A stretch of 60,781 nucleotides of DNA, taken from the NCBI GenBank assembly GCA_032718475.1, contig JAUCBJ010002494.1, positions 1-60,781 of the forward strand, in the 5' to 3' direction. The notes under the pieces are model-generated. The model was given only the letters and a program-made list of their open reading frames with translations, did not search any database and was not told the DNA's origin. The stretch comes from Nemertoderma westbladi. Taxonomy: Eukaryota; Animalia; Xenacoelomorpha. This document shows, in pieces, positions 5,903-56,312 of the stretch (position 1 is the first letter of the stretch; every line of letters starts with the position of its first letter). The position numbers and the translations under genes were made by a program.

Positions 5903-6993
5903 AAACAACAACAACAAAAAACTTCAAGCAACCCGGCTGGAAACCATACTGTTAATAAATCTTCTCCTGAGCTTCTCATCTGGACTTAAATTCATAGTAT
6001 TTTTCCTCTTCCTCGCCTGGAGGGCACGTCCCTCCTGCAAAAGCTCCTTAAAATTACCAGACCTCCAGAGTTCGAGCCGTCTATTAAGTGTCTCACTAAG
6101 ACTTTCAGCATAAGTGCTTGTTGTTGAAGGATTACCTGCACTCTGTAGTAAGAGGGCCGGTGCTGTCATGATGGTGGTCATGGCTACGTTCCCCAGGTTG
6201 ACCTTCTCAGCGAAAGCTTTCAGTAAATCTGTGATCATGGCCTCATATCAACGGCCAGCTGCGGACCTTTGGACCTCAAATAGGGCTGGCCTCCAATATA
6301 GTATTTCACAACATGCATCCCTCAGTTGAGCATGTGTAATATGTATAATCTCCCCTGGAACTCAGTCCCAACTAAAAGAGAAAACACACGGGGTAAATAT
6401 TGGTAATTCGTCTAAGTGGGAGATGGCCCTGGTTCTGAGTTGGGAATGGTGTTAGGCATGTTATCAAAAAGCTGTCCCACCAGCGTATCAGCATTGGCGC
6501 CTGTATGGATAGATGATGATGGAGGGTGTTGGTTGTTCCTGGGCTCCAGGTGAGTTCTCATCACATCAGGGTTATGTATTATGGTTCTCTCAAGGGTAGC
6601 ATCGGTGCTATTGGTGTCCGAGTCAGATTCCTATGTAATATTTAGAATCTCTTATTTCTTACTGTTTTTGTGAAAGCTACAGATAACTTAGGAATTAAGG
6701 ACCAATGCCTTCCCATACACGCATACATATATACCACAATCATGTGAATTTGTTTGTCCAGGATAATGTCGTATTCTTTGTGATGGTCTCCACAATTGTT
6801 TGGTTGAAGAGTTATTATCAAGAGCTCCATAAATTAAATTTAGAATGTTCGCTATTTTAAGAGATAATTGTGAATCAGAAGTTTTCATTATTGAGTCCAG
6901 CGTAATGACTTCCCTTCTAATTGGATCTACCACGTGAAGAGTGTAGTGGTTGTCGGGCGTCTTTTTTGTTACATTTTTTGTTACCGGCACCAC
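5903..6993 (-). mobile_element. CRE/NeSL-like non-LTR retrotransposon fragment with Ulp1/C48 protease domain
   Basis: HYTLHVVD..ITLDS..QTNSHDCGIYVC is a Ulp1-type H-D-Q-C set (6688-6993); LLLQ..LNRRLELWRSG.FKELLQEG (5924-6238) resembles the pre-RT region of CRE-type elements. Confidence 0.6.
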
Positions 6994-7529
6994 CGGGTCG
7001 GAACCCAGACAGAGCCTATCTAGGGATAGACGCTAGGTTTTCACCCGCGTTGAAACCTGTGTTATCCCGCCATAGAGCTTTGGTGAAGGCCATGGACATA
7101 GACCTGTTCCCCGCCACCAGGACTGGCCGCAACCTGGAGAAAACTATCATTAAAAAGAGACCCCTAGCGAGCCTGACAGGAAACCACCCCTGTGAGAAAC
7201 CACGCTGTAAGACATGCCCCTCTATGGCCGATATGTCACAGAGTCCCTGGGGCTCAAAATCACGGGAACGTACGACTGCACATCGCACAACATATTGTAC
7301 CTACTAACGTGTTCCGCACACCCAGACGACTATTACCTGGGATAGACTAACTAAACACAGATCTGCTACCGAGTACATGCTGCTTCGACATTTCCTCACA
7401 TGCCCAATCGACAATCTCAGGATGACAGCATTCCGCAGATTCTACACAGATATAGACAGGATACACGCGGAGTCCGTGTACATTAACAGACACAGACCTC
7501 CCTGGAACAAAATGTATCCCGCCATGTGA
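6994..7529 (+). mobile_element. 5'-truncated Penelope-like element (Neptune-like): Cys linker plus GIY-YIG endonuclease pseudogene
   Basis: HPCEKPRCKTC linker; after a frameshift, YDCTSHNILYLLTC..DYYLG*T..RIHAESVYINRHRPPWN, matching GIY-YIG motifs; stop at 7527-7529. Confidence 0.8.
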
Positions 7530-7685
7530 CCCCGCGACTTCCTCTCTGCAAGTGACAACACCGATCCCTTACCTTTTATCCATATTGGTAATATTGGATT
7601 AATTACGTTAAATGGTGTGCCGGTTTATATTTCTAATGTTTTGATATTGTACATAGTACTTACCTTTGGATGATAACGGTTGGTC

Positions 7686-8011: not shown

Positions 8012-8050
8012 GGTCCTGACGATACCCCAACGGGGAGAAATATATTGACC
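8012..8050 (+). ncRNA. Minimal type I hammerhead ribozyme (Penelope pLTR type)
   Basis: GGTC-CTGACGA-TACCCC-AAC-GGGGA-GAAA-TATA-TT-GACC: stem I GGTC/GACC, both core boxes, palindromic stem III. Confidence 0.75.
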
Positions 8051-8626
8051 GTTAATTTACAACAACATTTTAAACTGGGCGATAAAGCAGTATAGGGAGT
8101 ATAGCAGTAGCATCAGGTACTATATCGTTGTCGGGGTATAAACTAATGAGTTCTTCTTGTTGCGATACTGTGAGCTCCAACAAATCAATGTGTTTTGAAG
8201 GCTGCCCCAATGGTAATTGTGTTTGTAGTTATTATTTATTTATTTATATATTTATTTATGTTTGTAGCTACTATATTACTGATATTTATATTACTGATGA
8301 GGCCTGTTAGGCCGAAACGTGCGTATAGCGCTGGTTCAACCCCCGGTGACGCGCTCCCATTTTTTCCACTTCTGAACAAACCCATAATATTACACCTTTA
8401 ATTACAGTTGCAACAGCTCATCTCCAATTTATTTAATTAATATCACCTGGCAGCAATACCGAGCTGAATATTTATTTATTTGTACTTCCCTCCTGTTTCA
8501 CTCTAGCATACTTGAGGCCGTTAGGTCCGCTGTTAGAGATAGAATATTTGCAACTTAAGACTGCCCGTTCAATAGAAGTGGATTAGGTGGGATTGCGAGT
8601 GTCAGGGGCTAGTGGCTGAGCTGGTT

Positions 8627-8672
8627 AGCGCTACTGATGAGGCCTGTTAGGCCGAAACGTGCGTATAGCGCT
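8627..8672 (+). ncRNA. Type I hammerhead ribozyme
   Basis: AGCGCTA-CTGATGA-GGCCT-GTT-AGGCC-GAAA-CGTGCG-TA-TAGCGCT; predicted cleavage after 8665 (GUA). Confidence 0.92.
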
Positions 8673-8966
8673 GGTTCAACCCCCGGTGACGCGCTCCCAT
8701 TTTTTCCACTTCTGAACAAACCCATAATATTACACCTTTAATTACAGTTGCAACAGCTCATCTCCAATTTATTTAATTAATATCACCTGGCAGCAATACC
8801 GAGCTGAATATTTATTTATTTGTACTTCCCTCCTGTTTCACTCTAGCATACTTGAGGCCGTTAGGTCCGCTGTTAGAGATAGAATATTTGCAACTTAAGA
8901 CTGCCCGTTCAATAGAAGTGGATTAGGTGGGATTGCGAGTGTCAGGGGCTAGTGGCTGAGCTGGTT

Positions 8967-9012
8967 AGCGCTACTGATGAGGCCTGTTAGGCCGAAACGT
9001 GCGTATAGCGCT
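8967..9012 (+). ncRNA. Type I hammerhead ribozyme
   Basis: Identical copy; predicted cleavage after 9005. Confidence 0.92.
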
Positions 9013-9306
9013 GGTTCAACCCCCGGTGACGCGCTCCCATTTTTTCCACTTCTGAACAAACCCATAATATTACACCTTTAATTACAGTTGCAACAGCTCA
9101 TCTCCAATTTATTTAATTAATATCACCTGGCAGCAATACCGAGCTGAATATTTATTTATTTGTACTTCCCTCCTGTTTCACTCTAGCATACTTGAGGCCG
9201 TTAGGTCCGCTGTTAGAGATAGAATATTTGCAACTTAAGACTGCCCGTTCAATAGAAGTGGATTAGGTGGGATTGCGAGTGTCAGGGGCTAGTGGCTGAG
9301 CTGGTT

Positions 9307-9352
9307 AGCGCTACTGATGAGGCCTGTTAGGCCGAAACGTGCGTATAGCGCT
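9307..9352 (+). ncRNA. Type I hammerhead ribozyme
   Basis: Identical copy; predicted cleavage after 9345. Confidence 0.92.
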
Positions 9353-9774
9353 GGTTCAACCCCCGGTGACGCGCTCCCATTTTTTCCACTTCTGAACAAA
9401 CCCATAATATTACACCTTTAATTACAGTTGCAACAGCTCATCTCCAATTTATTTAATTAATATTACTGTATAGTAGTCCTTGCAGCTGATCTAATTAATA
9501 CGATCTATAATAATGATTGGTTGAGATAATTCAACTGTCTACGAACTATAATTATACTAGGTTGAGATAATTCAACTGTCTGATCAATAATATCAAGCGA
9601 AATAATTAAGTTGAAGAACATTATTTAAATCGAACAATAATATCATTCGAAATAATTCAACATTGCAAAAATCATTTAAAACGATCAATAATACAGTATC
9701 ACTCGTGTTAAATTATTTACAATTGATACAAAATGTATACCATAATACATTACCAACTTCTTAAATACCAACAG

Positions 9775-11273: not shown

Positions 11274-11361
11274 TTAACAGAATTATATTATAGATATGTG
11301 GCAATCGAGATTAACGAGATTCCAGGAAAAGATCTGAAATGTTAGGTTACCGTTTCAGATA

Positions 11362-12420
11362 CAGTCCCGCTCACTAATAGAGTGCCACCGGATCCGATCT
11401 GAACTGATCGGTTATAACAGCTTCAACACTTTCCGACAAACTCCAACAGTTCGATAAGTTCCAACAGATTCGGACAGCTTCAAAAAAATTCAGACAGCTT
11501 CAAACAGAATCAGACAACAAGAACGACCTGTCACTCACTCCACCAAACACAACGGCACGCAGCAAACTTCGCCGCAAGAAAGCTTCGCCCGCGTCCAATC
11601 TTTGTCTGGAGCAATCTTTGCCCTCAAAATAAGCAACAATAGCCCGGCGGAAACCTTCGCCCGCGAGCAACCCTGGCCCAATAAACAATTCTTGTTTTGG
11701 TTAGAAAAAGCGATCTTTGTCTGGAGCAATCTTTGCCCTCAAAATAAGCAACAATAGCCCGGCGGAAACCTTCGCCCGCGAGCAACCCTGGCCCAATAAA
11801 CAATTCTTGTTTTGGTTAGAAAAAGCGATCTCTGCAACCTGCTCCTTTCGCTCAATTAGTTACACCATCGTTTATTGTTTTGGTTAGAAAAAGCCATCTC
11901 TATAACCTGATCTTTTCCCTCAATTTGTAACTAAAATGGTTACTAACACAAATCTTATTGGGCGAAGGTTGCTCGCGGGCGAAGGTATTCCCGGGCGAAG
12001 GTTGTACGCGGATGAAGATTAGACGCGGGCGAAGGTTGTACGCGGGCGAAGATTGCACCCAACCCACTCAACTCCTATCTTCCTGGGCACTATGTAGGAT
12101 ACAACAGAGTGAAAGCGTCTGACACTACAGTACAGTAAACTACATTAACTCCATTCATAAGCCACATAATGGCAGATTGTGCTGGCTAGATTGGGTGCAA
12201 TCTTCGCCCGCGTCCAATCTTCGCCCGCGGGCAACCTTCGCCCAATAAGATTTGTGTTAGTAACAATTCTAGTTACAAATTGAGTGAAAGGAGCAGGTTA
12301 CAGAGAACGATTTTTCTAACAAAAAAATAAACGATGTTGTTACTAATTGAGGGAAAGGAACAGATTACAGAGACGGCTATTTCTAACCAAAACAAAAATT
12401 GTTTATTCGGCGAAGGTTGC
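11362..12420. mobile_element. Partial Tc1/mariner-type MITE (same family as 22404-26842) interrupted by GGGTGCAATCTTCGCCCGCG-family MITEs
   Basis: TA|CAGTCCCGCTCACTAATAGAGTGCCACCGGATCCGATC end; nested element ~11555-12060 and a second partial copy from ~12192, both with CTTCGCCCGCG repeats. Confidence 0.7.
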
Positions 12421-19736: not shown

Positions 19737-22700
19737 TAATGACAATATTAGCGATCTCTGGTATGACATGGTGTTGTACTTGGACAAGGAATCTATTATG
19801 TACATAAAAAAACGACTGTCACAGTAATGGGCCAGCAGCCTGGCAGAAGTAATGCTATCGATTTCGAGGTGCTGAAAAACCGCGGATTATGGGGTTGATG
19901 TCTGACCTAATGAGACTTAAGCTAAAGTCTGAGGAGTCTGTGGAGTCTGTGGGTCCGTGTGAGGATTCCTACCTCACACGAGCGAAGGAGATCTCAGTAG
20001 ATCTGGCGGAAAATGGAGAACCTGTTAGTGACACATTGCTAATAAATACAGTTCTAAATGTCCTACTTAAGGATTACGACGAGTTTATCATAGCCCGAAA
20101 CTTCAATGAGCTATCATCTTTTGAAGAAACACGTGCAGCATTGATAAGTTATAGTGATTTTCGGAAGTATAAGGATACGTGCTAAATCTGGTGCCAGCAG
20201 CAGTAAACCGCATGGAAAATGTTATATCTGTAAAAGATCGAGACATTTCAAGGCGGATTGTCCTGAAAGGCGTGGAAAGGATAAATCTGGTGAAAAACCA
20301 CAATCTTTCTGCACCAACTGTAAGAAAACAGGCCATATATTTACTAACTGTTGGGCCAAAGGTGGTGGCTCTGAAAGAAAGTCAAATTGTGGTGGGAATA
20401 CCAGTGAAAATGTTTCGAATACTGCATCAAATACATTCTGTTTTCATTCATATCTCAGAGATCCTGACAATCAATCTAATGTATCTCATTTTCTGTTAGA
20501 TAGCGGGTATACGGATCATATGCTGGTCGACAGGCAATTATTTGTTAGTTACAAGAGTGCTGGTCCCAATGATGTGACTCGGAACCCTGATGGATCCACA
20601 ACGAGGATTGCAGGGTGAGGAACTGCTTCAATTTTGGTAAGGGATAGAAATGGGATGGAGGTGGAAATGAAACTCCAAAATGCACTCCATATCCCGGCTT
20701 ACACAAGAAACCTACTGTCCATCGATGTATGCAGAGGATATGGTTGGACTTGTGTTTTCTCTCCAGAAGAAGCTAAAATCTAAAAGAGAATCTAAAAGTG
20801 GAAATAAAATTGATGTATTCCGACTTTTCGACTTTTCTTTCTTGATGGAAGTGCCAATAAGTCCGAGGCTGAGTGCAATTTTACTTCTGTAGAACAACCT
20901 AATTTGCAACTGTGGCATACGCGTCTAGGCCACTGCAATGAAGCGGATGTTAGAAGTCTACTGAAGGATATGGGTAATATCCAATGCAAGGATCTATCTA
21001 AACCAATGCCTTTCTGTGAAGTCTGCCCTCAGTCAAAGATGCAGCGACTGCCAGTCTCTAAAAAGACAGAAAGAGTGGCTACAAAACCACTAGAGTTAGT
21101 GTATACAGACGTCACTGGGCCTATAGAGCCAGCGAGTTTCAATGGTATGCGGTATGCATTATGTCTCATAGATGCATACAGCCGTCTAGCAAAAATGTAT
21201 TTTATGGTACGCAAGAATGAGGTTATAGATAAATTCAAAATTTATACGGCAGAAGTTGGTATACCAGACAAAGTAATAAGGCACATACGCAGTGATGGTG
21301 GTGGTGAGTTTGCGTCAGGGGAATTAAGGGAGTTCTGCGCAAACAATGGCATTCATCATGAGTTTACTGTGCCTTACACACCTGAGATGAATGGAGTCAT
21401 AGAGAGATACTTTAGGACATCAGTCGATATGGCAAGGGCTATGTTAATTGATTCATGTTTATCAAAGAAATACTGGGTTCGGGCTCTCCATACTGCAGTC
21501 TATATAAGAAACCGGTGTCCATCTGGTGCTTTGGCAGGGAAAACACCATACCAAGTATTCTATGAGAAGAAGCCGGATATTAACAAGCTACATGTATTTG
21601 GTTGTGAAGAATTCGTTCGCATTGAACGACAGTTTAGAAAGAAACTGGATCCGAAAGCCTCATGTGGAATTTTTCTAGGTTATGACGATTCATCACCTGC
21701 TTATATTGTTGATGTCAATGGATCACTGAAACGACTGAGAAATGTTGTCTTCAATGAGAATTATCAACCTGTAGAGGCAGAGGATAGGGGCAAGGGGAGC
21801 ACTATAATTGGTGATAGTGAACTCGAACTGTCAAGTGACGATGACAATGATGACCTGGAATTTCCAGATGGTAGTATTAATAGTAACCCTGTAAGTGGCA
21901 TAAATAGTGAAATAATGGGGGCAGATCCTGTGGCTCAACATGAATCAGGTGAAGAGACTTCTAGGCCACGGAGACAGGTACAAGCACTACAACGCTATGG
22001 AGAATGGCTGAATGATATAGACATTGAGGCTCTAAATGCGTATAATGTAACACCATCACCAAATGGAGAACCAAAGAGCTACAGAGAAGCTGTAAACAGC
22101 ATTGAATGTTCTGAATGGAGACATGCCATGAAGGTAGAATATGATGCTCCAGTGCAAAATAATACTTGGGAACTTTCAACCATTCCATCAGGCCGAAAGC
22201 CAATAAGTGGAAAATGGGTTTATAAATTAAAACGCAATGAAAATGGTGACGTGCTAAAATACAAAGCTCGTTATGTAGCTCGTGGATTTTCGCAAGAAGC
22301 AGGAACTGATTATGAGGAAACATTTGCCCCAACTACTAAGAGGGAAACAGTGCGGGCAATACTCGGAATAGCTGCTCAAGAGAATCTTGTGCTGAGACAA
22401 CTACAGTCCAGCTCACCAACAGAGTGCCATCGGATCCGATCTGAACCGATCGGATCCAACAGCTTCAAACACTTTCAGACAAACTCCAACAGTCCAACAA
22501 CTTCAAACAGATTCAGACAGTTTCAAACAGATTCAGACAGTTTCAAACAGAATCAGACAACTTCCAACAACCTGTCAATCACTCCACCCACACTCAACCG
22601 CAACCCCAACTCAACTCCCATCTTCTTGCGCGCAGATAGAATGAAGGCGTTTGAAACTACTAAAGGAACTCCATTCATAAAGCCACAATAACGACAGAGT

Positions 22701-23484
22701 GGACTGGCCACTGGCGGCTCCCTTGAACATTCACACTGTAACTTAAGCTGACCTGAAGGAACAGCCCATTAGTGAGGTCGGTATTTCTCTTTATTCCTGC
22801 CGCTATCTTTGAATAACACAATAGCAGAAAGCTAACCAGTGGTCTACCCCCAATACAAGAAAGACAAGTTGGCTACCATTGAAATGAATGGGGAATGGAA
22901 TTCTGTGTTCACATACTAATGTTGCTTTGGGTTGGTCTAGAGCCATACAATAGAGCTTTACGGAAATACACTTCCAAAGAGCCAAGCAGTGGCGGTATAG
23001 GTCCAAAATGCCCATGTAGAATTTCTTCGAATAAGGCTCAATTTCTTTAAGTTACATTAATTAAAATACTGATAAATATATTTTGCTTTTCGCAGGAGGG
23101 ACAGTATCCCCCTCTACAGTTAATATAGTGTACGTACATGTGTTAGTTATATAGTTGCGTTTATTTATATTTATACAGGTTTGGATATGATCTCTACTAG
23201 TTTGATTTTTGTTTTGTCAATTAATTAATTGTGCTGTTAATTTGTCAATCACTGCCTTAATTGGCTACATTGCTTATTGTATGAATGAATATAATTAGTT
23301 ATTAAGACATTATTTTAATTAGTATCTGGTGTGATTAGGTCTACCTTTTACATAACAACAGTACGTCAATGGCGGATATACTACTACTACTACTAAGTCG
23401 AGCGAACTTGGACAGTGGAAATGAGATCCTTCCAGGCTTCCCGATTCTCCATAGTTGTCGCAATTTCGTTTCTCCCAAGTTCAG

Positions 23485-25472
23485 AGATGATAATTGATGT
23501 TAACGACATACTGACTAACAGGGGGTTGGTATGTATATATTAAATTAAATTAAAGGAAGAACGGGGAACTGTGTGTGTGCCCTAGCATTCCACCAGTTTC
23601 CCATTGGTAACATATTTACTTACCATAGGCCTATAGGGTTCCTGTGTTCTGTGGTCTGACTTCTGTTTTGGGCTAGGTGGTAACAGAGTTGATGGTGCAA
23701 TTATTTTAGGTCATTGGTGCATTATAGATAGGCTTGGCTAATTCCCTGTCCAGCTGACGAGGTGTCGAGGATTAGCGCGTACTGGTCCAAGACACCGAAA
23801 CGCAACCATATTTTTCACAAATTAATTATTTTTGCCTCAGTCATACCCCTTTCACGGCGACAAAATTGTCATATATTTTCTTATAGAATATAGGCTTAGC
23901 TATTGTGCAGTTTATTAACGGTATCATTTAGTGTATGGCGGGTAGGCTTAGGGTTAGGGTTGCGACACATACCTGTATGTTTAGCTTGTATTTATATTTG
24001 TTTGTGTTTGTGTGTTTGTTGTTCTTTCGATGACCCTAGGGGTCGAGAAATATTTTGGGCTAAATGTCCTGATTCTATATTTTTTATTGGGGGTGTAAGA
24101 CTCCTGTTCTTCCTTTAATTTAATTTAATATATACATACCAACCCCCTGTTAGTCAGTATGTCGTTAACATCAATTATCATCTTATGAAAGTGGAGCAGA
24201 ATTCCGACATTACTGCAAATCATAAAATCTTATTTAAATTTTGTACTGTGTGTGTGCCCTAGCATTCCACCAGTTTCCCATTGGTAACATATTTACTTAC
24301 CATAGGCCTATAGGGTTCCTGTGTTCTGTGGTCTGACTTCTGTTTTGGGCTAGGTGGTAACAGAGTTGATGGTGCGATTATTTTAGGTCATTGGTGCATT
24401 ATAGATAGGCTTGGCTAATTCCCTGTCCAGCTGACGAGGTGTCGAGGATTAGCGCGTACTGGTCCAAGACACCGAAACGCAACCATATTTTTCACAAATT
24501 AATTATTTTTGCCTCAGTCATACCCCTTTCACGGCGACAAAATTGTCATATATTTTCTTATAGAATATAGGCTTAGCTATTGTGCAGTTTATTAACGGTA
24601 TCATTTAGTGTATGGCGGGTAGGCTTAGGGTTAGGGTTGCGACACATACCTGTATGTTTAGCATGTATTTATATTTGTTTGTGTTTGTGTGTTTGTTGTT
24701 CTTTCGATGACCCTAGGGGTCGAGAAATATTTTGGGCTAAATGTCCTGATTCTATATTTTTTATTGGGGGTGTAAGACTCCTGTTCTTCCTTTAATTTAA
24801 TTTAATATATACATACCAACCCCCTGTTAGTCAGTATGTCGTTAACATCAATTATCATCTTATGAAAGTGGAGCAGAATTCCGACATTACTGCAAATCAT
24901 AAAATCTTATTTAAATTTTGTACTGTGTGTGTGCCCTAGCATTCCACCAGTTTCCCATTGGTAACATATTTACTTACCATAGGCCTATAGGGTTCCTGTG
25001 TTCTGTGGTCTGACTTCTGTTTTGGGCTAGGTGGTAACAGAGTTGATGGTGCGATTATTTTAGGTCATTGGTGCATTATAGATAGGCTTGGCTAATTCCC
25101 TGTCCAGCTGACGAGGTGTCGAGGATTAGCGCGTACTGGTCCAAGACACCGAAACGCAACCATATTTTTCACAAATTAATTATTTTTGCCTCAGTCATAC
25201 CCCTTTCACGGCGACAAAATTGTCATATATTTTCTTATAGAATATAGGCTTAGCTATTGTGCAGTTTATTAACGGTATCATTTAGTGTATGGCGGGTAGG
25301 CTTAGGGTTAGGGTTGCGACACATACCTGTATGTTTAGCATGTATTTATATTTGTTTGTGTTTGTTGTTCTTTCGATGACCCTAGGGGTCGAGAAATATT
25401 TTGGGCTAAATGTCCTGATTCTATATTTTTTATTGGGGGTGTAAGACTCCTGTTCTTCCTTTAATTTAATTT
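23485..25472 (+). mobile_element. 677-bp tandem array (~2.8 copies) with 5' inversion and TSD; Penelope-mobilised/retrozyme-like
   Basis: Units start at 23568, 24245 and 24922; 23485-23567 is the reverse complement of 24102-24183; flanking duplication AAGTTCAGAGATG (23477-23489, 25473-25485). Confidence 0.9.
23750..23807 (+). ncRNA. Hammerhead ribozyme core with atypical topology (copies at 24427-24484 and 25104-25161)
   Basis: CCAG-CTGACGA-GGTGTC-[GAGGATTAGC-GCGTA-CTGG-TCCAA]-GACACC-GAAA-CGCAACC. Confidence 0.7.
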
Positions 25473-28119
25473 AAGTTCAGAGATGGCGGATATACATTAC
25501 ATCATAATATGGCATGGCAGTCACGTGAAAACAAGGGCCTTCACATTCCCAATTCTCTATCTAATCTATTATGGTTGTGCGAAATGCTCAATACTACTTT
25601 ATGATATTAATTCATTCACGTTTAACATTAACAGCCACGTTTCATCACCCCCCCCCCCCCCCCCCCCCCCCTCCCCTTCCAATGTGACAAACTATCACGA
25701 TGTGTTGGCGTTGGGCCCCGTCCCTACGTCCACCCTCCCTTGTGAAGGGCTAGGGGGGACTTTCGACCCATCATTACTAAAGGGTAGTGATAATATTCAA
25801 AATAAGTTTTCCCATGTATACGTAATTTTATTCTTAAATAGGTACTTGTTTGTTCCTAAATTCTGCCTAAATGCTGCCTTACTCAATGTTAAATAATTTA
25901 TTGTTCTCGAATATTTATTTCGTAACTAGGGAACCGCTTAACTACAAACCAATATTGGATATGGAGTTCCGTTTCGAAGTTCGCCTTGCAGAGACTAAAG
26001 TTGCAATAACTTTTGAGTGTGTGAATGTAATTTACTCAAATAGGGTAGGTGCGCGAAAAAATAATTGGGCTAGAAGTATTACGTGCAAACCTTTTAATTT
26101 CGATGCTCTTTCAACACAACTAATAAAATTAACCAAAAATATTTTTTTTCACTCATTGTAATTATATTTACTGTTTGCTTAATCTGTTTGTGTTTATATC
26201 TGTTTATGTGCAGTATTTAGTGCCCTACGTCAAAGAAACTAATATATTTATAGCATTATTTACATTTCTAATTAAATTAAGTTGGTGTTATTATATTCAT
26301 TTATCGGAATTTATATTATTGGAATTTATTATTCGTTTATGCATTCTAGTTAATTAATTGATATAATTAACGACATAATTATGTAAATAAAAATTGTTAA
26401 ATGAAACAAATCTTTGTTTCGGTTTATAATTGACAATTGCACACCCTCACAATCACTTCAAATTGAGAGTTAAAGTGATTGACATTTTGTTAATGAACTA
26501 CGCTTTTGTAAGGCATTGGCAAATTCCAACAAATTCCGATGGCGTCAAACATCTTCAGACAATTTCAAACAGTTTCAGACAATTTCAAACAGCTTCAGAC
26601 AACTTCAAACAACATCAGATAGCTTCCAACAACATCCAACAGAAATTTCAAACACTTTCAGACGGATTTCAGACAGATTCAGATGGGCTCCAACAGACTA
26701 AACTTGTTGGAAATATTTTCTCCAACAGAATCAAACAGTACTAAATCTCCGTAGGTTAGGGTTAGCATTGTGCTTGTTTGAAGCTGTCGGAGTGTGTTGG
26801 ATCCGATCGGATCCGATGGCACTCTGTTGGTGAGCGGGACTGTAGATGTGAAGTCATCTTATCTGCAGAGCAGCGTGAAAGAGGAGATATACGTCGATCA
26901 ACCAGAAGGGTTTGAGAAAGTTTGCCAAGATAGTGAGAAACTTTATTGTAGATTGAAGAAATCGCTTTATGGATTAAAGCAAGCTGGGGCTAACTGGAAC
27001 CAAGAGTTAAATGCTTTTCTTGTTGGATGGAGTTTGACAAGGTGTAAATCAGACTACTGTTTGTATACAGATAACCATCCTGATGCTGAGAGACTAATGG
27101 TAGTGGTTTGGGTGGATGATATTGTGATAGCAGGAGCTATTGCGGCTGTGGATAATTTCATTATATCTTTAACAACAAAGTTTGAAACTGATGATAGAGG
27201 CGAACTCAGGTGGTTCTTGGGAATGCGAGTGCTTCGTCCCAGTGCTGAACTAGTAACGATTGACCAAACAAATTATATTGAACGTTTAGTAAGGCGTTTT
27301 GGACTTGGAGACTGCAAACATGTCGGCACACCTTTAGCCGAGGGTAACATACCTCAAAAGAACACGGGATCAATCAATCCACAGTTAGCCGCAAAATATA
27401 AGGCATTAGTTGGGGGGGTTTGTTGTTCATCGCTACAAATACGAGACCCGATATTAGCTATACAGTGAGTACATTGGCTAAGTTCTGTAGCAACCCGACT
27501 GATAACCACTGGACTGCAGCAAAACGATGTGTTAGTATCAGATCAAAGGATGATAAACTGACATTCAGACGAGATCCTGGAGGTTTGGAACTATGAGGGT
27601 TCAGTGATGAGGATTATGCCGGTGACGTTGATGATAGAAAGTCAACAGGTGCATATGTATTCAAGTTAAGCGATAACAGTGGGGTAATATCGTGGGCTTC
27701 TAGGAAACAACAAAGCGTAGCACTTTCAACAACAGAGGCCAGATTTGTGGCGTTATCTAATCAGGAGACTACATCATTAAGAACACTATTGGGGGAGATG
27801 GGAATCCCACAGAGAGAACCAACAACTGTCTATGAAGACAATCAAGCCGCGATCTCTATGAGCAAGAATCCCGTAGTGCATCGAAGATCGAAGCACATTG
27901 ATGTAAAGCATTGCCATCTACGGGAACTCGTCAGTGAGGGGGTGATAAAAGTTGTTTATTGCCCAATGGAGTATATGTTAGCAGACCCACTTACTAAGGG
28001 TCTATCTAAGACTAAGACTGATCATCATAGAACTGTCCTATTGGGAAAAAGAGTAAACTATGATTTAGATACTGATTTAAATACTGTAAATAAGACTGCC
28101 ACATTATGGCGAGTGGGGG

Positions 28120-50424: not shown

Positions 50425-51251
50425 TCATTGGTTTTCATTGCCATCACCTCCTTTTTTTGTTTGCGGGTTGTACTTCCCCACTATTGGTGTTCATTGCCGT
50501 CACCTCAGTCCTTTTTTTGTTTGCGGGTTGTACTTCCCCACTATTGGTGTTCATTGGCATCACCTCAGTTCTTTTTTTGTTTCTGGGTTGTACTTCCCCA
50601 CTATTGGTGTTCATTGCCATCACCTCCTTTTTTTGTTTGCGGGTTGTACTTCCCCACTATTGGTGTTCATGGCCATCACCTCAGTTCTTTTTTTGTTTCT
50701 GGGTTGTACTTCCCCACTATTGGTGTTCATTGCCATCACCTCCTTTTTTGTTTGCGGCTTGTACTTCCCCACTATTGGTGTTCATTGCCGTCACCTCAGT
50801 CCTTTTTTTGTTTGCGGGAATTGTACTTCCCCACTATTGGTGTTCATTGCCGTAACCTCAGTCCTTTTTTTGTTTGCGGGTTGTACTTCCCCACTATTGG
50901 TGTTCATTGCCATCACCTCCTTTTTTTGCTTGCGGGTTGTACTTCCCCACTATTGGTGTTCATTGCCATCACCTCAGTCCTTTTTTTGTTTGCGGGTTGT
51001 ACTTCCCCACTATTGGTGTTCATTGCCTTCACCTCAGTCCTTTTTTTGTTTGCGGCTTGTACTTCCCCACTATTGGTGTTCATTGCCGTCACCTCTGTCC
51101 TTTTTTTGTTTCTGGGTTGTACTTCCCCACTATTGGTGTTCATTGCCGTCACCTCAGTCCTTTTTTTGTTTGTGGGTTGCACTTCCCCACTATTGGTGTT
51201 CATTGCCATCACCTCAGTCCTTTTTTTGTTTGCGGGTTGCACTTATCCACT
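50425..51251. repeat. Minisatellite, 57/60-bp unit, ~14 copies
   Basis: CTATTGGTGTTCATTGCCATCACCTC(AGT)CTTTTTTTGTTTGCGGGTTGTACTTCCCCA; no unique spacers. Confidence 0.95.
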
Positions 51252-51294: not shown

Positions 51295-51650
51295 GACATC
51301 TTCCAAAACGGCTACTGATGATACTTCATGAAGCCACCCGTGTCCAGCTGTTGGTGATTGGATCGTAATGGTTCATGGTTTTGATACATTTCCCCTAACC
51401 ATGTCATACCATTGGTCTACACCTGGATCATAACACCCGCTGATATAGAGTATCGATCCCTTGTTGGAACATCCAACCGAATAGAAAAATACATTGACAA
51501 AAGCGACTCCAGAGCTGATCCTATTCATTTGTTTAACCAATTGCCACTTATTAGACTCTGGTATGTATTGCTACCATGACAGAGTCCAGCAGATTATAAA
51601 TAGTGTTGTTTTTTCCGACCATAAAAGCAAACAAATGTGTACAGGGCTGG
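51295..51650 (-). pseudogene. Kelch-repeat (KLHL-like) pseudogene fragment
   Basis: Manual translation: YIPESNKWQLVKQMNRISSGVAFVNVFFYSVG..CYDPGVDQW..; HYDPITNSWTRVAS; frameshifts and stops. Confidence 0.75.
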
Positions 51651-54600
51651 GGTTTCCGAAGATGGTTCACAACCCAATGGAGGGAGATCAATGTAACTTG
51701 GACTCTGGAAGTAAAGTCTTCCTCTAGAAGTTTTACCGGTATGATTTATGCTCCTTTCATTACTGTTAATACAACTGTAATTATTGGTAATATCTGTATA
51801 AAAACACTCATTAAACATTTCTGAATCAGAAGAAGGAGACATTGTAGAACTCTTGTTACTATTGTTTATAGCATCTTCTACAATACTGCTATCGATAGAG
51901 ACTGCTGTACTACATTGAGCTTGTTGTTCAATATCAGGGTCATTATCAGAAATCAATTCCTGAGTAAAAACAAGCGAATCCTCAAATTTAATTAGAAGGG
52001 ATTCAGATAACTGACTATTGTCAACCACAGGGTATTTGATCGACATATTGATACATATTGGCTGGGAACTGGTTTGGGGAATCTGAAAGCTAAAGGTAGA
52101 TTCAGAAAGAAGTTGATCAGTAACATGTTGGGGTGCCAATAATGGACTATAGACTGGGTGTGGTGGTGGGTATGTAGGAGACAAGGCTGAACAATTTGAT
52201 GATTCGATAAAGCTATTCTTATTGCCATCGCAAAAGCATAAAGAATGATCAGAATTGCTTACAAGTTCATCAATATGTGGATTGTGAGAACTTATCTCAG
52301 AACTGGACAATGATCTATTACCAATACATTCCTCACTTTTTCTAAATTCTTTGCTATTCTGACTCTTGTTGTCATCAGCATGTTGGGAAGACTTCCTTAC
52401 AACATTAGGAGTGAAGTCCAATGAATCGTCGACATTGTCTATTGACTTTGTATTACTGGTATCGCTTTTGTCTTCATTAGGCCATGGGACTGAGTACAAA
52501 TCCGGAGAGACAGCAGACTGGCTCAATTTGTCCGGGGGGTCAGAGATATTTGAGTTATGTGGAGTAATAGATTTAATAGGAAAATTAATGTTTAGATTTG
52601 CAGGAGTAGGAATAGGAAACGGATTATCAAGGGGTGAGAATAATGCTTTTTGTGAAGAAATATTCATACCTTGATTGGGAGTGTCACATTTAATTAATGT
52701 AGATAGCGTTACATGAGAAGTTAAAGAACTATTGACATCATTTATACATTGGATTGGCTTTACAGAAGTGGATGCACTTGTTTGAACTGGAGATGCGGCA
52801 GGATTTGATTGGTGAGTAACTGTCTCTAAATGAGTTTTAATGGAGGATGTATCTTTAATAGATCCAACATTGTTAGAAATAACTGATCCTACTTGATCAG
52901 GAACATTGCAAACACTATTTATATTGCTATCATTGTGAGCATAAATTTGACTTGGAGATATATTTTTGGTACTATTCGTTTCATTCACGACATCGTTCCA
53001 GCTGGGGACAACAAGCCCTTGTACCACAGCATCACTCTCTACTATATGACGTGCTTCTATTATTATTTGCTTGGCAACATCCAATTCAGTAGAACCAACA
53101 GGAAATGCTGACAACCAGAACGCTCTAGATGCCTTCCTTCGGTCGTTGACATCGAATTCATCCTCATCAAGATGAGTTCTTTTACTTGCGAAGGGAGTCG
53201 ACATTATCACAGCCTTTTCAAGTTTATCCAACATTTCGTTAGCTAAACTGATGATGGTTTTATAACCAGATGAATATAATGACCTCGCTTGCTGGCCATT
53301 GATGCAGTTAAGTCGCACCAAGTCGCACAATTCCCGTTGGACACCATAGCACAACCTTGGCTGAAAGTCTGATAGAATCAGTTCGAGATTGGTCCAAGAC
53401 AAACGATTACAAAACACAGACACAACACCTGCAAAAGATGCTGCACTTTGCTGAAGAGACTGTAGTTGACCTCTAGGGATTTTGTACTTAAGAGAAACAA
53501 CATTCAAAGGAACTTCATTGATTAAATCCGTAAGAATTAAAGCAGTATAGAATCTTCGATGTACCGCTGCTGTGTGAATATCTTTTACAGTTTTTGTAGA
53601 GAATTTTCCTTGGACTGCCCGAGCAATATAAGACTCCTTAACACCTACCAGGTCAGCTACCCGTCGGTAATTAGCAGACATGTTGCTGTACAAACACATA
53701 TAATGGTACCAATCTATAGAACTAGCTACGTCGTAGGCATATATAGGCGTTACTTGATATACAGTGTGTAACTCACTGTCAAGAACAAAACATCTCCTAG
53801 CCCTCTGTAACTCAACAAACACCTTGATAGCTTCATCAGGGTTCATAGATGAAGCTAATACAGCTTGACCTAGTTGAGTAGGGTAATAAAGAGATTCACT
53901 ATCTCCAGCTCTTATAAACTCATTCTCAATCAAAAACCTCAAACAATTATCAACGCATTTCCCTATATTATTAGCTCCATGAGTTTGACTTGTAGTACTA
54001 GTACCGGTAGCTAATAATGTGCTTGAAACATATTGGGAAACATCTTGCTTGGTAGATGCAACGCCGCTTACAATAATCTCTAGAATGGCTCGTTTGAGAC
54101 TTGTACTCACATTATCATTATCTATAACCAGACAGCTTTTAACAGGTTGTAATGGTTTCGTTAACAACTGCATCGCTTTAGCTTTCTCTGTAGGTTTACA
54201 AATCAATATACTCTCCCCTGCACTGTCCACTCCTTTCCTTCCAGCTCGCCCCACCATCTGTTGATAAGATAAAGTGTCGATGACACCACCATTAAACGAT
54301 GTTGGAGTTCTAATAATAACTCTACGAGCTGGAAGGTTTACTCCGGAACTAAGAGTAGATGTTGCAACCAGAACTCGGATTGAACCATTACGGAAACCAC
54401 GTTCGATAATATCTCGTTCTTCAGTAGATAACCCAGCGTGGTGATAACAAACGCCAGACTGAAGACAAGTAATGAGAGATTTGTCTAAACCAACAGGGGA
54501 ATGTTTTAGATTATCCACCACATGATATAACTCTTCTAGGTTCACTGCTTCTAAAACCGAGTTCTTTCTCAAGCATATCAAGCCAGAAGCAACTATATTA

Positions 54601-55757
54601 GCTACCTTCTCACAACGGGCTTTACTGGGACAGAACACCAGCACAGAATGTCCATTTATTAAAGTCTCAACACAAAGACTAACAACATTATCTTCATCAT
54701 TAGTCAACCCAGTCTGAACTACCACATCTGATACTTTCTTCATTTCGGAAGAGTAGAGATATTCACCTAACTTTACAAATTGAACTAAAGGAACCGGTCT
54801 AAATGTAGTTGTATACAGAGCAGCATTCAACCATTTGGATATAACATTTAGGTTAGGAAGAGTAGCACTCATTCCAACAATTTGTATTGGGTTTGAGTTT
54901 TTCCCCACTTTGCTGATATACAATAGTTTAGTTAGCAATAATTCCAACAAATACCCCCGACTCGAGTCCCCTACCATATGTAATTCATCAGCAACGACTA
55001 CAGCCAACTCATTCAAGGTCCCAGACTCAAGCATTTTATTAACGAGGCTATTGGCTTTCTCGATTGTACAGACAGCTATGTTACAAGCAGCAAACCCTCC
55101 TGCTGGCTGTTCCCCTCCCATAAACCCACCCACCCGCAACCCAATACCTCCATACACACCACGCAGAGATTTGCTCTTCTCTTTAGCTACCGATACGTAA
55201 GGCAGAATATACAAGGCTTTTCTATCCAGTTCCAAACAACGTTTCAAAACAATTATATCTGCAACCAGGGTCTTCCCGGCACTGGTTGGTGCAGAGAAAA
55301 CAATATTACGCCCATCTAATACACCATCAAGTGTTAGACATTCTAGCTGCCACTGAAATATTGTAGATATTCCTTGGGCCTCATAGGCTTGTAATACCGC
55401 CTCTGGGAGATTCCAACTACTCAACGAAGTGGAGGGAAGTTCCGAATACTGTGAGGACAAAATATTATTTTGGATATTATCAAAGTCTCTCCTTTCTTTG
55501 CATTGCTGCTTAGGTCCTATACTCGATATATCATGAGCATCTGATGGTAACAAATGAGCAACATATGGGTCTGTAATCCTTTCATTACCATAGAAACCAT
55601 AATTAACATTGGGGTTTAGATTCTCCTTTAATATATCTCCAGAATGTATTAGTTTTTCATTACTAGTTGACTGTATATTTTCTGATTTTCTTAAATAAAC
55701 AGATTTTTGAAAGGAATTTGGTTTCCTTTCTCTCCAAGTATCAGAAAGTTTCTTCAT
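51594..55757 (-). CDS. POLQ: DNA polymerase theta: N-terminal SF2 helicase plus start of the central domain; polymerase domain absent
   Basis: APTSAGKT, DELH, GMSATLPN, ATSTLSSGVNLPARRV, QMVGRAGRKG; POLQ-type RLCYGVQRELCDLVRL; followed by a Ser-rich linker. Confidence 0.85.
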   Translation of the reverse strand: MKKLSDTWRERKPNSFQKSVYLRKSENIQSTSNEKLIHSGDILKENLNPNVNYGFYGNERITDPYVAHLLPSDAHDISSIGPKQQCKERRDFDNIQNNILSSQYSELPSTSLSSWNLPEAVLQAYEAQGISTIFQWQLECLTLDGVLDGRNIVFSAPTSAGKTLVADIIVLKRCLELDRKALYILPYVSVAKEKSKSLRGVYGGIGLRVGGFMGGEQPAGGFAACNIAVCTIEKANSLVNKMLESGTLNELAVVVADELHMVGDSSRGYLLELLLTKLLYISKVGKNSNPIQIVGMSATLPNLNVISKWLNAALYTTTFRPVPLVQFVKLGEYLYSSEMKKVSDVVVQTGLTNDEDNVVSLCVETLINGHSVLVFCPSKARCEKVANIVASGLICLRKNSVLEAVNLEELYHVVDNLKHSPVGLDKSLITCLQSGVCYHHAGLSTEERDIIERGFRNGSIRVLVATSTLSSGVNLPARRVIIRTPTSFNGGVIDTLSYQQMVGRAGRKGVDSAGESILICKPTEKAKAMQLLTKPLQPVKSCLVIDNDNVSTSLKRAILEIIVSGVASTKQDVSQYVSSTLLATGTSTTSQTHGANNIGKCVDNCLRFLIENEFIRAGDSESLYYPTQLGQAVLASSMNPDEAIKVFVELQRARRCFVLDSELHTVYQVTPIYAYDVASSIDWYHYMCLYSNMSANYRRVADLVGVKESYIARAVQGKFSTKTVKDIHTAAVHRRFYTALILTDLINEVPLNVVSLKYKIPRGQLQSLQQSAASFAGVVSVFCNRLSWTNLELILSDFQPRLCYGVQRELCDLVRLNCINGQQARSLYSSGYKTIISLANEMLDKLEKAVIMSTPFASKRTHLDEDEFDVNDRRKASRAFWLSAFPVGSTELDVAKQIIIEARHIVESDAVVQGLVVPSWNDVVNETNSTKNISPSQIYAHNDSNINSVCNVPDQVGSVISNNVGSIKDTSSIKTHLETVTHQSNPAASPVQTSASTSVKPIQCINDVNSSLTSHVTLSTLIKCDTPNQGMNISSQKALFSPLDNPFPIPTPANLNINFPIKSITPHNSNISDPPDKLSQSAVSPDLYSVPWPNEDKSDTSNTKSIDNVDDSLDFTPNVVRKSSQHADDNKSQNSKEFRKSEECIGNRSLSSSEISSHNPHIDELVSNSDHSLCFCDGNKNSFIESSNCSALSPTYPPPHPVYSPLLAPQHVTDQLLSESTFSFQIPQTSSQPICINMSIKYPVVDNSQLSESLLIKFEDSLVFTQELISDNDPDIEQQAQCSTAVSIDSSIVEDAINNSNKSSTMSPSSDSEMFNECFYTDITNNYSCINSNERSINHTGKTSRGRLYFQSPSYIDLPPLGCEPSSETPALYTFVCFYGRKKQHYL

Positions 55758-56312
55758 ATTAAGACAATACTTTACAATGTATTGAACACAATAAATATTT
55801 GTATATTACAATGTATTGTATATTGCAAATTAGCATTTAACAACATAGTTAATAGGTAAGTTATTGTAAGTTTAGGCCAATATGTAATGATATGCGATAA
55901 TAATACAGGTTACTGTATTGTACAGTCGGGGAGAAGTAATATTTTCAACTGAGATGAAATTTCAACTTTATTTTTTAAATTTAACTTTTTATTAAAATTC
56001 CAACTTTTGGAGCAGTGTTCAAAATTCAACTTTTTTAAATTCAACTTTTGGGAGTAGGTTTTGAAATACTGAAATTTGGAGTTGGAATCCATTACTGGTA
56101 CCGGTATTCCATTGTATAATAATTATGACTATGCATACAGCGGTAATTTAATGCATCTAATAAATTCCCATAGTATTTAAGCTAATTTGCAAATGTAGTC
56201 ACCTAAAATGTTTAAAAAAAGTAATCCCGACGGTGAAAGTTTTTATTCCATCGGTAATGATGGTTAATTTTTCGAGTTGCATCCATAGAAACAATAAAAA
56301 CACCCGCTCTGT

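Follow-up and report, generated by a model that had tools for sequence, protein, structure and literature searches.

The subject of this analysis is a tandem array of a 677-bp unit in a 60,781-nucleotide (nt) stretch of Nemertoderma westbladi DNA (contig JAUCBJ010002494.1; this whole stretch is called the window). By its block order, core and stems the motif carried by the unit is a type-CSG hammerhead ribozyme, and self-cleavage is predicted for it. In the division made by Eckert, Friedrich, Weinberg and Weinberg in 2023 a hammerhead consists of the blocks C, G and S, and six orders of these blocks are named (PMC10085705). The CSG topology was already published in that paper, and the new part is its setting in a multicopy mobile genomic repeat. 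It is probable that the array is a protein-free, retrozyme-like element whose ribozyme acts in cis and cuts tandem transcripts to 677-nt monomers; after these had circularised, a Penelope-type reverse transcriptase (RT) and endonuclease would insert them anew.

The hammerhead motif

All parts of the motif lie on the forward strand. Block C (23750..23766) consists of the stem I 5' strand CCAG (23750-23753), the core box CUGACGA (23754-23760) and the 5' strand of stem II, which pairs over 6 bp (23761-23766 with 23791-23796). A 10-nt linker (23767-23776) leads from stem II to block S (23777..23785), GCGUA|CUGG, which supplies the stem III 5' strand, the GUA triplet and the stem I 3' strand, with the predicted cut at 23781/23782. 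Stem I is connected to stem II by a 5-nt linker (23786..23790), which carries one of the two common variants; block G (23791..23803) follows with the stem II 3' strand, GAAA (23797-23800) and the stem III 3' strand. An earlier note on this DNA had placed the core boxes, the 6-bp stem II, GCGUA|CUGG and both linkers exactly where they are found. The 5'-3' order is thus C-S-G. Stems I, II and III have 4, 6 and 4 bp, all Watson-Crick, and 36 nt separate the halves of the core. The letters of 23737-23803 are unchanged at +677 and +1354, giving a second motif at 24414..24480 (predicted cut after 24458) and a third at 25091..25157 (after 25135), so that all core bases (CUGACGA, GAAA, and GUA with A15.1-U16.1) are present in three of three motifs. 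The three copies described in the earlier note are therefore identical over this segment; the units around them differ by 2 substitutions or one 8-nt deletion.

A descriptor written for all six block orders was run over both strands of the whole window, with 300 dinucleotide shuffles as controls. Six matches were obtained in the window, three of type CSG in the 677-bp array and three of type I in a different array. The shuffles gave no CSG match and two matches to other orders. When the core was held fixed and the 24-nt loop was shuffled, a strand like block S appeared in 157 of 200000 trials (66 with Watson-Crick pairs only). The earlier claim that GCGUA|CUGG is the only valid substrate strand holds at a minimum of 4 bp in stems I and III, where 23781 is the sole site per 677-nt unit whether or not G-U pairs are allowed; five candidate sites per unit appear when 3-bp stems and G-U pairs are admitted.

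No circularly permuted order of types I, II and III (CGS, GSC, SCG) was found at the motif sites within about 90 nt, only CSG. A long-range type I or III reading of the core was rejected, as no second 4+4-bp substrate exists anywhere in the unit. GAC at 23966, which had been named as a possible cleavage site, lacks both U16.1 and a stem I partner. The motif had been described as lying outside types I-III; it does not have the order of any of them, but it belongs to a known type that was shown to cleave in 2023 (PMC10085705). The expectation that standard descriptors would miss it was borne out. Rfam gave no window match at the gathering score, and 23400-24400 gave two chance matches with an E value of 2.9. 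The published CSG descriptors, in the passages available, demand CUGAUGA and at least four stem III pairs beyond the core A-U pair (PMC10085705). The unit motif would be missed by them because it has CUGACGA and three such pairs. No minus-strand ribozyme was found in the window scan.

It was also observed that block S is preceded by C (23776-23781), so that CGC is common to blocks G (23797-23803) and S. In a type I arrangement the joined blocks would give a minimal hammerhead whose stem III is palindromic, and a local rearrangement is a possible origin of the CSG motif.

The fourth helix and rival pairings

The fold has a fourth part that the earlier note overlooked. An 8-bp helix with one G-U pair, formed by 23737..23744 and 23769..23776, joins stems I and II. 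A helix at least as long is found in 674 of 20000 shuffles of the flank and for 194 of the 8366 other 20-mers of the window; judged by energy, the corresponding counts are 857 and 117. The first three letters of its 3' strand (23769-23771) can alternatively pair with 23786-23788 as a 3-bp extension.

Two pairings compete with the active fold. The nested optimum in ViennaRNA is stem II with a 7-bp extension, 23769-23775 with 23782-23788, which buries the stem I strand and would be inactive. The second involves 23958..23964, a 7-nt complement of 23801-23807 that could sequester stem III; a perfect partner for 23801-23807 is found in 606 of 20000 shuffled units (about 3%), so this pairing is weakly above chance. 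The earlier note had listed both pairings and proposed a switch. Both exist and dominate the nested ensemble, and on that ground a conformational switch is possible, although nothing further speaks for it. ViennaRNA forms no pseudoknots, and its nested ensemble excludes the active fold by construction and gives no ranking of the two. Stacking sums, with loop costs excluded, are -39.3 kcal/mol for the active helices vs -22.9 kcal/mol for the rival, and -41.1 kcal/mol when a 5-bp fourth helix is combined with the 3-bp linker-linker helix. For transcripts ending at 23776-23788 the predicted optimum includes the fourth helix. This points to a folding route that bypasses the rival hairpin; in this model the fourth helix would block it. 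Two telomere-like TTAGGG repeats (23944-23960) were observed directly before the 7-nt complement of stem III, and one sequencing run has a 7-nt deletion there.

The array as an inserted element

The direct array (23568-25474) has 2.83 units of 677 bp and three complete motifs. Unit 1 (23568..24244) is followed by unit 2 (24245..24921), with 2 substitutions relative to unit 1, and by a partial unit 3 (24922..25474; unit positions 1-561) with one 8-nt deletion. An inverted 81-nt piece of the unit (23485..23565, minus strand) lies upstream and matches 24103-24183 at 80 of 81 positions; 5 nt of it overlap the target duplication, and its outer 56 nt go past the end of the direct array. The target-site duplication is 13 bp long, with copies at 23477..23489 and 25473..25485; none of 396 random 51x51-nt window pairs shares 13 nt. 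The period and the tandem arrangement given in the earlier note stand, whereas its boundaries were too short; the whole element is 23490-25472, between the two target copies.

The unit has a GC content of 0.384. No open reading frame (ORF) of at least 40 amino acids with ATG lies wholly inside units 1 or 2, and unit 3 has a 51-amino-acid ORF that appears together with its 8-nt deletion. No RT or GIY-YIG ORF is found in the unit, so the element is not autonomous. Neither transfer RNA nor, by consensus, RNA polymerase III boxes were found in the unit. A bacterial promoter scan of the unit stayed at chance level and is not relevant. In the window no homologue was found that would tie the unit to the 3' end of an autonomous Naiad. 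A weak GUA|CUG site with 3-bp stems I and III lies at the start of the direct array (23568-23569, equal to 24245-24246), with its core 190 nt downstream. It is one of the five such sites per unit and is possibly due to chance.

The array sits inside a stretch (22397-26849) with 75-nt inverted ends (22397-22471 and 26775-26849) and 10-nt subterminal repeats. This stretch in turn interrupts a copia-type RT (Pfam RVT_2 positions 1-84 and 80-242). From this nesting the array would be the youngest of three layers. An end related to that of the 22397-26849 stretch was also seen at 11360-11518.

Copies and variation

The unit is present in 6 of 11 sequencing runs, five with one organism label and one with a second label. 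None of the six is listed as RNA; run X3, which may be RNA, has a depth of 3-6 and was left out. Contigs fitting it numbered 1167, 431, 59 and 53 in four runs. One contig that is identical over 23771-23825 has a word depth of 9346, vs 12-14 for contigs of 2.6-3.5 kb in the same run. Word depth is no copy number, and it suggests that the unit is present in hundreds of copies. Across 23735-23825, at a 1% threshold in all four runs, only 23789 in the linker and 23794 in stem II (U-A to U-G, a one-sided change) vary, and both variants are compatible with the fold. The earlier note had proposed to look for covariation among other copies; no two-sided compensatory pair was seen within the stretches of at most 30 letters read at the loose contig ends.

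Diverged contigs were also found. In run X5, a contig with its loose end behind 23769 has both linkers changed, the linker ending in ACC where the unit has AGC, and retains block S, the stem II strand and GAA. In run X4, a contig with its loose end before 23790 differs in the stem I strand. Within each of these contigs the linkers can pair with one another through different letters, a hint that a fifth helix is retained. Among 20 of the 53 rows of loose ends, some fall at 23774-23783, around the cut site. Depth drops near 24189 in three runs, close to 24183 where the inverted copy ends; an edge effect of the stretch is possible. Pattern scans for relatives gave 0 and 3 matches in metagenomes, 0 and 0 in viral contigs and 2 in prokaryote genomes. 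These five (L001-L005) are GC-rich, do not have the nested fold and were discarded as chance matches.

Proposed mechanism and alternatives

The following course of events is proposed. During transcription the 8-bp fourth helix would form first, so that the linker would already be paired when the rival strand is synthesised, and stems I, II and III would then close into the pseudoknotted fold. The ribozyme would cut in cis after A23781 and at the sites +677 and +1354, and cuts in neighbouring units would free 677-nt monomers. These may be ligated to circles, as with type I retrozymes. The 2.83 units could come from copying round a circle or from template jumps on linear RNA. A Penelope-type RT, possibly that of a Naiad, would be supplied in trans to insert the element, and endonuclease-primed insertion would yield the 13-bp duplication and the inverted piece.

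The cis-acting CSG reading is favoured because the perfect core and the Watson-Crick stems are far above chance. It is also favoured by the same order and four helices in the published CSG-1 and CSG-2, which cleave (PMC10085705), and by the same layout, as judged by eye, in six Naiad records. Further support comes from the stacking sums, the early fourth helix, the two fold-compatible variants and the X5 contig that retains block S. Penelope-type insertion is favoured because the anatomy of the array fits Penelope-like copies as described (PMC8557442).

A number of observations weigh against this explanation. The array is known from its DNA sequence, and cleavage and transcription are predicted. 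Stems I and III, at 4 bp, are shorter than or equal to those of CSG-1/2 (6 and 5) and of the Naiad motifs; 5 nt separate the fourth helix from stem I, where CSG-1/2 have 0; and the fourth helix on its own reaches only p 0.01-0.04. In the nested ensemble the rival hairpin has a pair probability of 0.997, and in a longer window 23801-23807 pairs with 23958-23964 at 0.99. As a circle, the 677-nt monomer has a predicted fold no more stable than that of shuffled sequences (z -0.27) and is not unusually self-paired, unlike retrozyme circles, which are described as highly paired. The cut site does not coincide with the element ends, and the insertion target is not a (TA)n microsatellite. Depletion of variants in the motif is weak, with two seen vs 2.2, 3.3 and 6.9 expected (p 0.63, 0.37 and 0.03 in runs X1, X2 and X5). 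No two-sided compensatory change is seen, the partner strands being outside the loose ends. Three other loose ends look decayed, with an additional base ahead of GAAA, loss of block S and a mismatch in stem II. The whole records of Naiad_Lpol and Naiad_Ptep show no CSG motif by eye, and the likeness between the array and Naiads is one of layout, also judged by eye.

Several of these points would suit an element with a true CSG hammerhead by descent that is now mostly held off or decayed. The 7-bp stem II extension and the distal 7-bp pairing would win, cuts would be rare or conditional, and the element would spread by Penelope-type template jumps without cutting. The rival hairpin is the nested minimum-energy fold, stems I and III are short, and canonical hammerheads are dispensable for the spread of Naiads according to Craig et al. 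(PMC8557442). The linkers that pair through other letters in the X5 and X4 contigs may reflect selection that keeps the pairing. However, the calculation behind the minimum-energy fold leaves out pseudoknots and hence the active fold, the linker-linker helix in X4 leaves block S free and can coexist with the active fold, and the abundant copies retain every core base. This explanation is considered unlikely.

It has also been suggested, in the earlier note, that the motif could either cut in cis as a double pseudoknot or cut the neighbouring repeat. The nested, doubly pseudoknotted cis fold is the best reading and has a tested precedent; cutting of the neighbour is not needed. Real cleavage between units or molecules, in which the core takes block S of the next unit as the dimer-acting minimal hammerheads of Penelope-like elements do, is improbable. 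The tandem layout would allow it, and the CGC common to GAAACGC and CGCGUA gives the impression of descent from a minimal type I motif whose stem III was palindromic. The cis fold may also be strained where the fourth helix meets a 4-bp stem III with a zero-nt link. Yet such zero-nt links are present in predicted type-SGC ribozymes, and CSG-1/2 cleave as single short transcripts (PMC10085705). A 4+4-bp substrate 650 nt away and buried in loop II would be a poor target, and the fourth helix makes sense in cis only. That the motif is a broken ordinary hammerhead or a chance assembly, with the core and long stem II remaining and block S in the loop by coincidence, is very improbable, since fewer than 1 in 1000 shuffled loops contain a chance block S, the fourth helix brings a further factor of about 0.03, and the layout is shared with the published CSG and Naiad motifs, even if no homologues were found beyond the source organism in the metagenome, viral-contig and prokaryote-genome scans.

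A wider proposal goes beyond the cis-acting CSG reading and is put forward tentatively, with somewhat less than even confidence. CSG hammerheads may be overlooked ribozymes of Naiads and their parasites. The array would then be a CSG retrozyme whose cis-cut 677-nt circles are spread by a Naiad enzyme, in a five-helix form in which the linker-linker helix braces the fold and, when extended, switches it off. If CSG is a Naiad ribozyme, the two published soil sequences would be tails of Naiads from soil invertebrates. A multicopy genomic CSG family would put the type in a biological context and would offer both covariation and material for structure determination. Such a family would also imply that retrozyme surveys with type I descriptors overlook a class, and that the finding that Naiads spread without canonical hammerheads conceals a rearranged one, which would reopen the question of whether self-cleavage is needed in all Penelope-like elements.

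Other features of the window

A second tandem array (8292-9466) has a period of 340, 3.4 identical units and a canonical type I hammerhead. Three of its hammerheads are complete, and the first copy is without the stem I 5' strand. By its sequence this array is an ordinary non-LTR (non-long terminal repeat) retrozyme. It has no similarity to the 677-bp unit, and the ends of the two share 9 nt. A minimal type I hammerhead with CUGACGA lies at 8012-8050, just downstream of a broken frame (6921-7530) that resembles, by eye, the GIY-YIG end of a Penelope-like element; 6921-7304 gave no Pfam match. Of 14 ORFs in the window, 7 have a Pfam match at an E value of 0.01 or better and one more has a weak match, with copia, Pao and POLQ domains among them; these domains point to an animal, Pao elements being mostly animal. 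A 1403-codon open frame on the minus strand (51594-55805), intronless in this stretch, has DNA polymerase theta helicase domains. A 56-61-nt unit is repeated 14 times at 50427-51251 and is open in several frames.

Comparison with known systems

In the literature covered by the search, which left most subscription papers outside, no CSG or other non-circular hammerhead was found placed in a genome repeat, a retrozyme or a Naiad. For Penelope-like copies, Craig et al. (2021) described partial tandems that lie next to an inverted, 5'-truncated copy and are extended on one side (PMC8557442). They reported no canonical hammerhead in Naiads and flagged records as 'HHR_half_core' where the core halves lie 35-50 nt apart, including Naiad_Parc and Naiad-3_Nbra. 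The array has the same partial tandem, inverted truncated copy and extension at one end, and the 36-nt spacing in the unit falls in this range. The extension is 56 nt vs 30-40 nt in Naiads, and unlike them the array lacks an RT or endonuclease ORF and has a clear 13-bp duplication and a target other than (TA)n.

The four-helix CSG layout, with the order C-S-G, stems I-III and the fourth helix, was recognised by eye in six Naiad records in the supplement of PMC8557442. These are Naiad_Parc, the record before it, the records ending before the Naiad-3_Nbra and Naiad_Hcon headers, one in supplement part 15 and the record before Naiad_Lpol. From the order of the metadata sheet all six are likely to be nematode, the headers of at least four not being visible. 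The inspection covered supplement parts 13 and 16 of 59 and passages returned by search, so that six is no fraction of all Naiads. The published CSG and Naiad pairings were judged by eye, without a script or shuffle control. Several other records (parts 16, 17 and 19) have hammerhead core motifs in non-CSG layouts, with GAAA upstream of CUGANGA. The six records show, as far as the layout goes, that CSG recurs in Penelope-like elements; descent of the array from a Naiad does not follow.

The definition of metazoan non-LTR retrozymes includes a type I hammerhead both in Cervera and de la Pena (2020, PMC7229834) and in Li, Clavereau and Pollet (2026, bioRxiv 10.64898/2026.07.22.740005), and the survey in the latter used type I models only. 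Expression as linear and circular monomer RNA is a further trait of retrozymes. Their monomers are ligated into circles, and the minimal hammerheads of Penelope-like elements act as dimers (PMC7229834). Retrozymes and the array have in common head-to-tail non-coding units with one hammerhead each, a GC content below 50%, a target duplication of more than 4 bp and presumed mobilisation by Penelope-like elements. The unit of 677 nt is longer than the 170-400 nt of PMC7229834 and within the 51-972 nt of bioRxiv 10.64898/2026.07.22.740005. The hammerhead is of type I in retrozymes and of type CSG in the array, so the array is retrozyme-like and not a member by the published definition.

Type CSG is represented in print by two similar sequences, from soil-metagenome DNA only and of unknown host and role. 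CSG-1 and CSG-2 cleave in vitro where predicted, with rates of 0.004 and 0.026 per min, and their covariation is modest; in the published alignment the 5' flank forms an 8-bp helix with the strand that follows stem II (PMC10085705). They share with the unit the order C-S-G, a full core, stems I-III, an origin in DNA, a likewise placed 8-bp fourth helix and a short linker from stem I to stem II, which is 5 nt in the unit vs 4 nt in CSG-1/2. The sequences are unrelated. The unit has CUGACGA and GUA where CSG-1/2 have CUGAUGA and GUC, its stems I/III are 4/4 bp vs 6/5, and it has an additional possible helix between the linkers. Type-SGC hammerheads such as HRIMA-1 have a different block order and come from metatranscriptomes (PMC10085705), whereas the unit comes from a genome. 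CSG-1 and CSG-2 are contigs of a soil metagenome, whereas the 677-bp unit is a multicopy mobile repeat in Nemertoderma westbladi.
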